A stretch of 64,000 nt of DNA, taken from positions 2,095 to 66,094 of the IMG/VR virus record IMGVR_UViG_3300020050_005381, one strand, 5' to 3'. The notes beneath the pieces were generated by a model, which saw only the letters and a program-made list of their open reading frames with translations, did no database searches and was not told where the DNA came from. Both the position numbers and the translations under genes were made by a program. Positions 8,924 through 64,000 of the stretch are shown here, piece after piece (within the stretch, counting starts at the first letter, position 1; every line of letters begins with the position of its first letter). The DNA is from a virus. Its lineage: Duplodnaviria; Caudoviricetes.

Positions 8924-9471
8924 TGACTGTAAAAACAACTAACGCTCAACTCGGCCTATCAGTAACTCCCGCGAATAACTTCACGCTAGATGCTAGTGCT
9001 AATGATGGCACGATGAAGTTAGAGCGTAATGATGGTCAGGATATTATGACTGTGGATTCCGCTGGTAAGGTGGCGTTTCCACAAGGTCTTAAGGCTACTG
9101 AGCTTACGAATAGCGTAACTAACAATGCGCTTACAACTGGCGTTAATACTAAGCTAGGTAGCGTTACACTAACTCCAGGATTGTGGGTTCTTACTGGATC
9201 AGTCTCACTGGTCTCTACTGCAGCTAGCATTGCGTGGAACAGTGCGTACATTGGAACTAGTACTACGACGGATACTGGAAGTTTTGTACGAAATATAAAT
9301 TCACCTAGTGTCGTACTAAATACCCCTGCAAATGGCTCACCTTATGTATTTACCACAAGAGTGGTTGTAGTGACTGTAGACACTGAGTATTCTGTTTATT
9401 GTAATCACTCATTCTCTAATGGTAATGCCTGTGGAGCTACTGGGATTATTACCGCAACAAGGATAGGGTAA
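8923..9471 (+). CDS. Tail-fibre-associated protein
   Basis: T/S-rich beta protein coupled to upstream stop; T-rich codon usage. Confidence 0.55.
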   Translation: MTVKTTNAQLGLSVTPANNFTLDASANDGTMKLERNDGQDIMTVDSAGKVAFPQGLKATELTNSVTNNALTTGVNTKLGSVTLTPGLWVLTGSVSLVSTAASIAWNSAYIGTSTTTDTGSFVRNINSPSVVLNTPANGSPYVFTTRVVVVTVDTEYSVYCNHSFSNGNACGATGIITATRIG

Positions 9472-42369: not shown

Positions 42370-42575
42370 TTCAACATCTCCTTTATTTGTTCGTAGGTTT
42401 CCTGAACATATACTTGTTGTGTCTCCCCGGCTCCGATGTATTCGACGAAGCTATTCGTATTTTCATATTGTGAGTTGGCGTAATTTTCACACCGATTTAC
42501 GTGGATAATATGAAGGGGGTTTAGTAGAAACTTACCGTCACCTAGTTGTTTGTAAGCAGAAGTTAGTTCGATCAT
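42366..42575 (-). CDS. Small protein (FlbD-like pattern)
   Basis: MIELT...FLLNPLHI...VYVQETYEQI. Confidence 0.55.
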   Translation of the reverse strand: MIELTSAYKQLGDGKFLLNPLHIIHVNRCENYANSQYENTNSFVEYIGAGETQQVYVQETYEQIKEMLK

Positions 42576-43078
42576 TCTGTGGTTCCTTTCTTCATTTCTT
42601 TATAGAATGCGGGCAAAGCGTCGTGCGTTTCAAGATCACGCAGAATCTTTCTACCCATTCCGGCTGCAATTACTTCTTGCTTGCGCTTTTGATACGCTCG
42701 CCACTTTGCAGCATCTGCCTTGTACTCGGCAAGCTGGCGGGTGAAGATTTCAATATTCTCTGCATGGATACGTCTGAGAGCGTCGTTCGCTTCCGTTACA
42801 TCAGCGAAGTCCTGCACTAGCCTATCATTACGGAATTGAAGGTCTTCATTCTCCTTCTGGAGTTGAGCATTAAACGCCATGCGCCGATATTTCATTGGCA
42901 CAGTATTAAGCCGTTCATTTTCAGCCTTGTGCTCGGCAAGCTGGCGCTTGAGTTCGTCGCGTTCTCGTTCCAATCTAGCTCCATCGCTGTTGTACCAGTT
43001 GCATTTTGCAGTTAGCTCAACGTTTAAGTCTTTCAGCCGCGCATTCTCAGCCTCAAGCGCTTTGTACTTTTCGATCAT
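42572..43078 (-). CDS. Accessory coiled-coil protein
   Basis: AGGAG RBS; repeated KRQLAE segments. Confidence 0.6.
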   Translation of the reverse strand: MIEKYKALEAENARLKDLNVELTAKCNWYNSDGARLERERDELKRQLAEHKAENERLNTVPMKYRRMAFNAQLQKENEDLQFRNDRLVQDFADVTEANDALRRIHAENIEIFTRQLAEYKADAAKWRAYQKRKQEVIAAGMGRKILRDLETHDALPAFYKEMKKGTTE

Positions 43079-43157
43079 CTCATTCTCCTAAATAGGTGCC
43101 AGCAGCCGATTGACGCGATGTTTTGCGTCTTGTAGGTGGCCTATTTCGCGTTCGGCA

Positions 43158-43505
43158 TCACTGGATACGCTCAGTGCGCCCACCATGCCGCAAAACCTCG
43201 CCGTAGCTACCAATTGTCACTTGGTCGTCACAGTGCACGCGCAGCGCCTGTTTAACGGCGGTTTCGGCATTACGCATGTAGCGCTCGTGCTCATCCTGCT
43301 GCGCCTTCAGCTTCGCTTTCCACTCGCGTTCAATGTCGTCCAGCCTATCGCTCGCTGGCGGAGAGTAGAACGCCTGCCCGTAGTGTTCGTGGCCCCCCTC
43401 TACCGCCTCGGCCAAGTAGGCCAGTTGCTCGGGCGTCAGCTTCAGTTCGCACTCTTCCGCTGCGATGCTGATGCACTCTTGCCAGTAGTCTTGTTGTGCG
43501 CTCAT
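43158..43505 (-). CDS. Hypothetical protein (left of attC-2)
   Basis: GGAGG RBS 25 nt from the attC-2 boundary; 115 aa. Confidence 0.65.
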   Translation of the reverse strand: MSAQQDYWQECISIAAEECELKLTPEQLAYLAEAVEGGHEHYGQAFYSPPASDRLDDIEREWKAKLKAQQDEHERYMRNAETAVKQALRVHCDDQVTIGSYGEVLRHGGRTERIQ

Positions 43506-43529
43506 CCAGTCCTCCTTCGTTGCGGTTAT

Positions 43530-43618
43530 GCCTAACACGGCGGTCAACGCGACCGGCCGCAAGCATCGTCCTTGTTCAATCGCCAGTGCTGGCCGGCGCG
43601 TTAGCTAGTGCGTTATAC
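43530..43618 (+). mobile_element. attC: Integron attC recombination site (attC-2, 89 bp)
   Basis: R'' GCCTAAC, 5-nt spacer, L'' GGT[C]AACG, stem with extra A52, L' CGTTAGC, 6-nt spacer, R' GTTATAC. Confidence 0.85.
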
Positions 43619-43852
43619 GTTCATGGCTCCAAGCAGCAGCGACCGTTTGTTTTCGTACGGAGCGCCGGATGGAACGTGCGGGTTTCCCCTCATGTCTGTG
43701 TATTCCGCATGCTGCTCAGGGTCGAACTCTGTCTCGCAAGCATTCCCGCCCTGGTCGTAATAGCCGCGCCCAGACTCGTGCTCCACCACAAAAACGTCTG
43801 CATCCTGGTCTTCAAATGCTTTCAGCCATTCAATCAGTTCTCGTACTTTCAT
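43613..43852 (-). CDS. Cassette-borne hypothetical protein (79 aa)
   Basis: GGAGG RBS; MKVRELIEWL...; stop codon is the TTA of the attC-2 R' core. Confidence 0.7.
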   Translation of the reverse strand: MKVRELIEWLKAFEDQDADVFVVEHESGRGYYDQGGNACETEFDPEQHAEYTDMRGNPHVPSGAPYENKRSLLLGAMNV

Positions 43853-43919
43853 CTCTTCCTCCACGTATAACTGTGCCTTCAACGGCGACCGCCCTTACGG
43901 GCGTCGCGTTAAGGCGGCG
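43613..43919 (+). mobile_element. Integron-type gene cassette, 307 bp, gene in inverted orientation
   Basis: Starts G|TTATAC and carries R'' GTATAAC, exact complements as required for a cassette. Confidence 0.8.
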
Positions 43920-43925
43920 TTAGGC
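43865..43925 (+). mobile_element. attC: Integron attC recombination site (attC-1, 61 bp)
   Basis: R'' GTATAAC, 5 nt, L'' CTT[C]AACG, stem GCGAC[C]GCCC-TTAC-GGGCGTCGC, L' CGTTAAG, 5 nt, R' GTTAGGC. Confidence 0.88.
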
Positions 43926-44500
43926 GGTAGTTTCCGCCGTGCATCGTCAGCGTGCTTTTCAAAGTCAGCGTGTCGGGTCGAGTACAGCGTATCTTTCCCC
44001 TTTGCCCACTTTTCGTGGATCGAGGTGCATACCTCCCATGCAATCGCAGCTTCCTTCCACCCATCTTGCTCGCTCTTGCTCAACGAAATTAAGTCCTCTG
44101 CGCAGCACTGATGCTCTTCGGTTTTGATGCGTAGCGCAATCTCAAGCTGCTTTATCTCTGCCTCGTTCTGTGACTGCCTTTTGTACTCGTCAAGCTGCTT
44201 AACGAGCTCGTAGTATTTGGTAATGGCATCGGCTACCGCCTTTTCTGTACCATGCTCGTATTGATAATGCCCACCATCTGCGTGGAGAACAGCAAGTAGC
44301 TCGCCAAGCATTTTTACGTACGCTTCATGCCTTGGTTTCAGCCGCTCATACTTAGCCTCAAGCGCCTTGTTCTGCTCGATCAGCTTGAGAATTACATGCA
44401 CATTTAGCGTGGTCAAATAGCTGGCAAATGCCTCTTCGTCGTCATTTTTTGACTGCATAAAAGTAAGCACAGCCTGCTTCAGCTTTTCCAAGTCAAGCAT
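43895..44500 (-). CDS. Accessory mosaic protein whose C-terminus (PPNAALTRRP) is encoded by attC-1
   Basis: Stop TAA lies in the attC-1 loop (43895-43897). Confidence 0.65.
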   Translation of the reverse strand: MLDLEKLKQAVLTFMQSKNDDEEAFASYLTTLNVHVILKLIEQNKALEAKYERLKPRHEAYVKMLGELLAVLHADGGHYQYEHGTEKAVADAITKYYELVKQLDEYKRQSQNEAEIKQLEIALRIKTEEHQCCAEDLISLSKSEQDGWKEAAIAWEVCTSIHEKWAKGKDTLYSTRHADFEKHADDARRKLPPNAALTRRP

Positions 44501-44501
44501 C

Positions 44502-44618
44502 CTATTTCTCCCACTCATATTTACCGCAGAGAACACACTGAAGCCAGCTTCCACTGCGCTTCGTATACTGCCAGTCGTGTTGATGCGGTTCGGTTTGCTT
44601 ATAGCGAAGTCGGATCAT
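44502..44618 (-). CDS. Small protein, 38 aa (not in ORF track)
   Basis: AGGAGAG RBS; HQHDW...CVLCGK. Confidence 0.45.
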   Translation of the reverse strand: MIRLRYKQTEPHQHDWQYTKRSGSWLQCVLCGKYEWEK

Positions 44619-44717
44619 CTTACTCTCCTAAAAAGGTGCCAGCCAGCGGGTTGGGATAGGGTTGTATTCCAAGACAAACCAGTCTCAAAAGATCTAATGC
44701 TGGCTGGCGAAACAGTA

Positions 44718-62802: not shown

Positions 62803-64000
62803 TGTTTTTAATCTCACGCCCAATTGCGCGGGTATCTCAACCCGGTAGCAGTTGGGCACCGCTGGCAAAGCCACTAGATATTGGGGTGCTTTACAGTGGC
62901 ATTGCCGGAAGTACTCAGCGCAACGGCTCGCATCCCTCTTACGTCGCGGCAAATGCTTACGGGTACTGGGAGCAATACCCCACTGGAACTACTTACGCAT
63001 CAGGTTTTTGGCTTCCGCAAGCAAAGCCGATGTATGCGGGTTTGGGGTCTAGCTTTTTGTGGCATGGCCGGATCACGGCTCACTCCGCGTCTTACCCTTA
63101 CGTGGCCGGTAAGTGGCAGACCCCCACGGTCAGCGGCAACAACGCCGGGCAGTTTTACTTACTGATTGGATCATCTGGGAACATCGGGGTCACTGTTCAT
63201 CGCGGTGCATCCGGCGTATCTACGCTATACACAAGCATCCAAGCGCAGCTAGGTGTACCAATCACCGTGTTGCTTAATTTCAGCGATCTCGGCATTGACG
63301 TTATTACCAGTAAGGGCCGCGAGTTTCTATCCCTGACAGGAATTGGCGGTCTGGGTGGTCCAGCTGCTACATTTGGTGTCACCGTTGGTGCGCCCGGAAG
63401 CGGATATTCAGGCCATCAGTACGCTCGCACTGGCTTAATGGTCTGGAGTGATAAAACACTCCCAGATGATGTCGTCAAAAACCCTTGGCAAGTGTTTGCA
63501 CCGGTTGACCGTAAGTTGTTTTTGCCCCTGTCGGTGGGTGGGGGCAGCGCATCGTTAATCATTCAAGACGCATCTCACACCCACATTGCCGATTCACCCT
63601 CATTCAGCATGGCGACCTACCTCACCATTGCCGAGGCTTTGCATGGTCACGCTGCCGACAACATCACACTGGGCGTCACCGGCACGGCAAATCTGGTGGT
63701 GCAAGAGGCGACACACGCGCACATCGCCGACGGTGTAAGCCTGACCACGCAATGGCTGCTCACCATTGCCGAGGCGCTACACGCTCACGCTGCCGACAAC
63801 ATCACACTGGGCGTCACCGGCACGGCAAATCTGGCTATCGCCGACGCGACCAGCGGCCACACCTCGGAGGCCGTGGCGCTCACCTTGAATTCGCTGTTGG
63901 CGGTATTCGATGCCATTCACACCCATACTGCCGACAACCTGACGCTGGACACCAGCAACGCTACAGCACTCACGGTTCAGGACTCGACGCACGCCCACGG
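62802..64000 (+). CDS. Lectin-like (LamG-type) domain plus His-x-His repeat fibre protein, 3'-truncated (not in ORF track)
   Basis: Open from ATG 62802 to window end: MFLISRPIAR...NPWQVF, then repeats such as LTIAEALHGHAADNITL. Confidence 0.75.
   Translation, partial: MFLISRPIARVSQPGSSWAPLAKPLDIGVLYSGIAGSTQRNGSHPSYVAANAYGYWEQYPTGTTYASGFWLPQAKPMYAGLGSSFLWHGRITAHSASYPYVAGKWQTPTVSGNNAGQFYLLIGSSGNIGVTVHRGASGVSTLYTSIQAQLGVPITVLLNFSDLGIDVITSKGREFLSLTGIGGLGGPAATFGVTVGAPGSGYSGHQYARTGLMVWSDKTLPDDVVKNPWQVFAPVDRKLFLPLSVGGGSASLIIQDASHTHIADSPSFSMATYLTIAEALHGHAADNITLGVTGTANLVVQEATHAHIADGVSLTTQWLLTIAEALHAHAADNITLGVTGTANLAIADATSGHTSEAVALTLNSLLAVFDAIHTHTADNLTLDTSNATALTVQDSTHAH
63621..63834 (+). repeat. 138-bp-period direct repeat inside the fibre gene
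   Basis: 49-bp perfect block at 63648-63696 and 63786-63834, plus CTCACCATTGCCGAGGC at 63621 and 63759. Confidence 0.9.

Follow-up and report, generated by a model that had tools for sequence, protein, structure and literature searches.

A reversed integron gene cassette between two attC sites in a phage genome that encodes no integrase, and the phage-linked family to which its sites belong

Integrons are known as bacterial gene-capture platforms, and the attC clusters seen in phages have been read so far as strays from host arrays. The locus described here raises the question of whether a phage genome without an integrase can hold a complete integron cassette and, if it does, by what route the cassette may have come there. 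The window, by which we mean the whole stretch of DNA that was analysed, comprises 64 kb out of a 66,094-bp phage contig with a terminal overlap of 121 bp, and its gene content includes a DNA polymerase, a ligase, a primase, a terminase and a portal protein. A sequence-only reading of the window had described a cassette between two attC sites with no integrase in view, and this last observation was found to extend to the whole 66-kb genome: searches with TIGR02249 and PF00589 detected no tyrosine recombinase of any kind in the complete 66,094 bp. The window phage is a lytic-type phage with no recombinase of its own, and it does not have the combination of intI, attI and a cassette promoter beside the array that marks a complete integron.

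The two attC sites sit within a run of small minus-strand genes, referred to here as gene A (43158-43505, 115 aa), ORF79 (43613-43852) and gene C (43895-44554, a 219-aa ORF in the ORF list). Gene A, both sites and ORF79 are contained in a GC-rich island at 43.0-44.0 kb (43000-44000), for which the composition profile gives a GC content of 0.55-0.60 versus 0.38-0.50 in the flanks, and the closest relatives of parts of this island are contigs with 57-64% GC. Megablast of the window against GenBank phages returned no match, and the sole likeness found there with blastn was a 278-bp stretch of gene A in two Yersinia phages. A search of IMG/VR with the flanking genes 42575-43078 and gene C did not yield a useful relative for the window phage. 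When metagenomes were scanned with gene C, L192 was recovered, a 99.9% identical phage from another sample that retains both attC sites and the same cassette. The sole difference between the two phages lies at 42736-42933, within a coiled-coil gene (42572-43078), where L192 has 347 nt and the window 197 nt. The start region of this coiled-coil gene also resembles the upstream region and interior of gene C (repeats D8/D18; window 43031-43103 versus 44336-44385 and 44613-44643, 84-90% identity). These repeats flank the GC-rich island and are the starts of paralogous coiled-coil genes; they could have acted as guides for its insertion by homologous recombination. Elsewhere in the window, 63621-63896 holds a tandem pair of 138-nt units with 75% identity (repeat D2).

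The first site, attC-2 (43530-43618, plus strand, 89 nt), consists in order of the R'' box GCCTAAC, 5 nt, the L'' box GGT[C]AACG, a variable loop, the L' box CGTTAGC, 6 nt and the R' box GTTATAC. The second, attC-1 (43865-43925, 61 nt), is separated from it by 247 nt on the same strand and has a left arm made up of R'' GTATAAC, TGTGC and L'' CTT[C]AACG, followed by a 22-nt loop region, L' CGTTAAG, GCGGC and R' GTTAGGC. In both sites the extrahelical C is the fourth base of L'', on the 5' arm, and the unpaired spacers measure 5 and 6 nt in attC-2 and 5 and 5 nt in attC-1. One pair in the L box of attC-2 is mismatched; the version of this box in the metagenome contig L193, GCT[C]AACG, pairs perfectly. 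Every motif that the sequence-only reading had listed for the two sites, the extrahelical C included, is in place, and the outer boxes GCCTAAC of attC-2 and GTTAGGC of attC-1 are, as it had held, exact complements. The ends of both sites are of the form RYYYAAC for R'' and GTTRRRY for R', with one box per site a single base off consensus (GTTATAC in attC-2 and GTATAAC in attC-1). These two off-consensus boxes complement each other, which is what the cassette rule requires. Together, attC-1 and attC-2 form a two-site CALIN, that is, an attC cluster without an integrase.

Because Rfam has no attC family, we built our own covariance model from bona fide integron arrays. Its seed was restricted to the attC sites of four GenBank integron records, namely a Vibrio anguillarum array (L037), the Shewanella M16-3 integron (L040) and class 1 arrays on a P1 phage and a Salmonella island (L038 and L039). 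The first model (R1) gave a single match in the window, at 43865-43925 on the plus strand, with 24.8 bits; as a control, class 1 attC sites absent from the seed (estX, cmlA1 and a dfrA cassette) scored 24-30 bits. The model was then rebuilt from a model-guided realignment of 43 real attC sites (R2) and run with filters off. In 128 kb of searched strand, R2 ranked attC-1 first (26.2 bits, E = 6e-4) and attC-2 second (17.1 bits, E = 0.086), both on the plus strand and with exact ends, where the E-values are rough and come from a model of our own that differs from that of IntegronFinder. The covariance-model check proposed for these sites thus returned both as the top two matches in the window. 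The third-best match, at 9117-9148 (14.9 bits, E = 0.29), consists of no more than R-box-like ends (AACTAAC ... GGCGTTAATA) separated by 11 nt and is probably due to chance. With R2, no minus-strand match appeared at attC-1 or attC-2 up to E 10; matches on the plus strand and none on the minus strand define the attC polarity, to which gene A, ORF79 and gene C are accordingly antisense.

It could be argued that two GC-rich palindromes were simply picked by eye and resemble attC by chance, given that a loose motif scan (AAC...GTT plus a bulged stem) returns about 20 matches per strand in this genome, so that the motif alone is insufficient as a test. Chance, however, would not place exactly these two sites at the head of the model ranking with exact ends, nor would it produce dozens of family members with covariation or natural alleles that break at attC sites, both of which are described below. 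Chance resemblance is already refuted by the model ranks, the chain rule and the natural alleles, and we give it practically no weight.

The cassette begins with the TT of R' in attC-2 and ends with the G of R' in attC-1 (43613-43919, 307 bp, plus strand in attC polarity) and is bounded by two crossover points between G and TT (G/TT). Its first six bases, TTATAC, complement GTATAA of its own R'' box, GTATAAC, and the cassette rule that had been claimed for this segment is borne out by the sequence. ORF79, its only gene, encodes 79 aa plus a stop, has its own ribosome-binding site (GGAGGAAGAG) and ends in a TAA stop codon that falls within the attC-2 R' box. The protein matches phrog_14647 (E = 2e-13), a phage protein family of unknown function; it has 18 viral relatives, its nearest Atlas clusters are viral hypothetical proteins, and a comparison with Pfam returned no family. 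Gene A, to the left of attC-2, matches another phage protein family of unknown function, phrog_21617 (E = 7e-46). In a standard cassette, the ORF shares the top strand of attC and precedes its attC, and it is read from Pc beside intI; this is not the layout found here. Since ORF79 is antisense to attC, its cassette is something other than an ordinary bacterial cassette that found its way into a phage.

On the other side of the cassette, attC-1 provides, with its right arm and loop, the last codons and the stop of gene C, and in other contigs the C-terminal module of gene C (43917-44165) stands alone as a small gene. Two modules appear to have been fused in gene C: 44181-44389 is common to L199 and L201, and in L201 a part of this type is followed by an attC-1-type arm. 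In L194, L195, L196 and L200, the small gene of the 43917-44165 type is preceded by weak attC matches, and a decayed intervening attC may lie near 44166-44230 in gene C.

The position of these elements between co-transcribed genes, where they overlap stop codons and ribosome sites, and the presence of a start codon inside one loop in the related contig L019 would suit a function as RNA, with processing sites, stabilisers or translational couplers that mimic attC in shape only. Three observations do not follow from such an explanation: the conserved AAC/GTT boxes, the chain rule, and gain and loss at G/TT. A scan found no intrinsic terminator (GC-rich hairpin plus T run) or promoter at either site, there being no terminator-like T run and no promoter consensus, and an Rfam scan of the whole window gave no match. 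We consider it very improbable that the elements are RNA features alone, and an RNA role may be added to their role as attC sites.

Natural alleles show that the 307-bp segment behaves as a mobile cassette. L001, a 4.7-kb IMG/VR contig, has only 43611-43883, i.e., the cassette, in common with the window, and in its attC the loop is longer and the L stem shows a compensatory change (CTTCAACG/CGTTAAG to CTTCAACC/GGTTAAG). The same contig carries this attC plus the start of the next gene twice (L001:977-1110 and L001:4525-4658), 3548 bp apart and with 98% identity, which reflects either a duplicated cassette or an assembly effect. The sequence-only reading had suggested looking among relatives for an empty site and for alternative cassettes, and alleles of both kinds were found. 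In L193, the end of gene C (95% identical) is directly joined to an attC-2-type core (86% identical) without the 307-bp cassette, and the joint lies within the shared GTT, though the gene on its far side is a different one from gene A. Different attC cores and genes adjoin the same end of gene C in L194, L197 and L202, and what adjoins it in L195 and L198 is unrelated sequence.

The homology of these contigs to gene C begins at about 44165 (44143-44165) and extends down to 43917-43980 in L193-L198, L200 and L202, ending at 43917-43919 in L193, L194, L195, L197, L198 and L202 and stopping earlier in L196 and L200. The break at the gene C end always falls right after ...AAC(GC) on the coding strand, which in attC polarity is the G/TT of R'. 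In L077, homology ends 4 nt from R'. L019, which is 94% identical over 43149-43536, diverges directly after the R'' box GCCTAAC, and a 35-nt match to L019 ends within the loop; breakpoints of these kinds indicate that top-strand events or homologous exchange in conserved cores also occur. The retention of the same cassette by L192 gives no sign of ongoing turnover in the window lineage.

To place the two sites in a wider family, we recruited contigs by a 15-mer from the attC-1 core, which gave 119 IMG/VR matches, and filtered these with the covariance model. Most of the 119 were chance matches, and only the model-confirmed ones were used. L170, L121 and L111 carry the 47-nt core of attC-1 without a change, and L074 and L080 carry it with a single base altered, with R boxes and both flanks differing in every case; counted over all contexts, the core is identical in six, L170 included. 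The largest array found in phage contigs comprises 13 sites within 7 kb (L172), and L171 has 8 sites. Covariation in the L box across 65 distinct family members was 0.385 versus 0.123 in shuffles, a value reached by 0 of 500. R-box positions beside the fixed AAC/GTT are often unpaired in place, as is expected in cassette arrays, and only 6 of the 75 family sites have self-complementary R boxes. The chain rule held for 29 of 49 neighbouring site pairs versus 4.8 by permutation (0 of 20000). Where array loci share homology on the scale of genes, 11 of 54 homology ends lie within 6 nt of the R' G/TT and 3 of 54 within 6 nt of R'', with about 0.3 expected in each case.

Two further observations were made on elements of this kind. 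L019 has two attC-type sites (L019:3283-3378 and L019:3625-3720) whose loops hold a ribosome site, a start codon and about 14 first codons, and the genes that start there are two paralogous zinc-ribbon genes; because the gene starts lie in the loops, exchange at R' would attach new gene bodies to an unchanged N terminus. Short pairs of R''-like and R'-like boxes without an L stem, such as GCATAAT GGGC GTTATGC, occur at L170:3836-3856 and L002:about 810-835, and these may be attC remnants after loss of the core.

A family of this kind could also be viewed as a set of conserved intergenic hairpins whose likeness to attC is inherited or incidental and whose cores recombine by RecT/YqaJ-type homologous recombination, giving mosaic joints with no IntI. 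The 47-nt cores that are identical between unrelated contexts are what such a process would use, a RecT-like protein in L019 and a YqaJ-type exonuclease in L177 are encoded just upstream of arrays, and the few breakpoints at R'' or within the loop also fit. Exchange in a shared core, however, explains neither the excess of pairs that follow the chain rule nor the 11-to-3 excess of breakpoints at the R' G/TT. It also does not account for L193, in which the cassette was lost between two different cores, those of attC-1 and attC-2, and the joint falls in the GTT that both have, or for the true IntI that stands beside arrays of the same core. Homologous recombination as the sole source of these joints appears unlikely to us. 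Our main reading, to which we assign a probability of roughly 0.8, is that attC-1 and attC-2 are a genuine attC pair enclosing a 307-bp cassette, that they belong to a phage-linked family with backwards cassettes, and that its members are joined at G/TT in the manner of IntI.

The IntI in question is encoded by L170, an 18-kb provirus fragment that has both the identical attC-1 core and an integron integrase gene. Its product matches TIGR02249 with 450 bits (cut-off 265) and is 80-85% identical to the IntI of Aromatoleum, Denitromonas and other Rhodocyclaceae (Rhodocyclales). The other genes of L170 include a phage tyrosine integrase, a cII-like gene, a primase and a large terminase, and L170 is a temperate phage. 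Its intI ends a row of small genes that run towards it, with attC sites between the genes in the opposite polarity. The same layout with a related IntI was found in the further IMG/VR contigs L174, L177, L180, L186 and L190; in L173, likewise, attC lies upstream of intI on the opposite strand and the genes run with intI. It also occurs in the bacterial, prophage-like loci L204, L205 and L207. Gene orientation was called with a GC3-based gene caller checked on normal integrons, and the same caller, applied to the chromosomal integrons L215, L249 and L257, returned the usual sense orientation. Throughout the phage-linked clade, genes are antisense to attC and co-directional with intI. A large serine recombinase follows intI in L180 and L174, and a YqaJ exonuclease, an HNH endonuclease or DNA methylases are encoded upstream of intI in L177, L180 and L190. 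DNA methyltransferases (N6_N4_Mtase and C-5 methylase) are among the array cargo at L180:5528-6223 and L190:2747-4348, a type of cargo that has been noted for phage cassettes (Qi et al., 2023; PMC9892861).

These loci bear on the source of the integrase. The sequence-only reading had proposed that the phage uses a host integron integrase in trans, but the nearest candidate is the temperate-phage IntI beside the identical core in L170. Its further claim, that the locus is the footprint of IntI-mediated attC x attC recombination, stands as far as the attC sites and the complete cassette bounded by them are concerned; as to dependence on IntI, we infer that IntI catalyses the exchange events and that these continue in the window phage.

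Several known systems resemble the window element in part. Qi, Rajabal, Ghaly, Tetu and Gillings (2023) described 17 CALINs among 10,705 phage genomes and found that IntI1 recombined 5 of the 6 phage attC sites that were assayed (PMC9892861). The window element is a further case of these published clusters, with which it shares attC sites and cassettes in a virulent-type phage without IntI. It differs from TJE1 and PH101, whose cassettes are described as oriented like bacterial arrays (PMC9892861), in that the window gene is antisense to attC. Unlike the published phage CALINs, moreover, the window has a site type that is common to a temperate-phage clade encoding its own IntI, and natural empty-site and replacement alleles are documented for its cassette. 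Among the papers covered by our literature searches, we found no description of the reversed orientation of phage cassettes or of a phage-borne IntI clade that shares a site type with them.

The phage-linked clade resembles sedentary chromosomal integrons, such as those of Vibrio (L037) and of Xanthomonadales/Nevskiaceae (L249, L257 and L215), in having near-identical cores with many unrelated cassettes, R boxes that vary while the chain rule is obeyed, and attC sites upstream of intI on the opposite strand. In sedentary integrons, however, genes are sense to attC, diverge from intI and are read from Pc, whereas genes of the phage-linked clade run towards intI and must be read from a phage promoter. 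Class 1 attC sites (60 nt in aadA1/aadA2 and 90 nt in dfrA12) share with the window sites the length plan, the spacers of 5 and 6 nt, the extrahelical C as fourth base of L'' and a GC before the R' GTTA. The dfrA12 site in particular (L039:993-1082, minus strand), with CGT[C]AACG ... CGTTACG, is a near twin of attC-2, with GGT[C]AACG ... CGTTAGC. The window sites differ from class 1 sites in their loop sequences, and the cargo is no resistance gene but a phage protein of unknown function. An IntI and an array inside a prophage are likewise found in the complete integrons of temperate phages, namely Shewanella M16-3 and V. anguillarum prophages. There, the attC strand is that of all annotated cassette genes in M16-3 and of most in the V. 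anguillarum prophage L037, and the V. anguillarum array is described as a captured subset of the host chromosomal integron (Qi et al., PMC9892861). In the L170 clade, by contrast, intI lies at the end of the early operon beside the phage integrase, and the cassette genes are all reversed.

Each gene of the family lies on the strand opposite to bacterial integron usage, which sets an attC hairpin in front of each gene, and attC often supplies the stop codon of a neighbour, as it does for gene C in the attC-1 loop and for ORF79 in the attC-2 R' box. The pattern suggests a mechanism in which cassette genes would be read within the phage's own early transcript. Cassettes would be cut and joined at the R' G/TT of folded single strands, as in IntI-catalysed attC x attC recombination. 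The matching IntI would come from temperate phages of Rhodocyclales-type Betaproteobacteria, in which intI sits at the far end of the early-left operon, beside the phage integrase. Two routes into the window phage can be envisaged: the exchange may take place when an infected cell supplies IntI, from a resident prophage of the family or from a host integron, or the cassette-bearing GC-rich island may have been gained from such a phage by ordinary recombination. A single cassette in a foreign-looking GC-rich island fits passive inheritance as well as active use.

Against the usual view of phage attC clusters, the window points the other way: the cassette holds a phage gene, this gene is oriented for phage transcription, and its site type is common to temperate phages that encode IntI. 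Alleles from metagenomes document gain, loss and replacement of the cassette exactly at the point of crossover. Should IntI catalysis prove true, it would account mechanistically for some of the gene-by-gene mosaicism in phage early regions, and virulent and temperate phages, perhaps together with host integrons, would have a way to share small accessory genes. We see about even odds for a broader proposal, in which phages of Rhodocyclales-type Betaproteobacteria run an integron system of their own, with backwards cassettes that are read from early phage promoters, and phages without an integrase draw on the common pool on infecting a cell with a prophage of this kind. If this is true, the integron would be not only a bacterial platform but a general phage device for shuffling accessory early genes.
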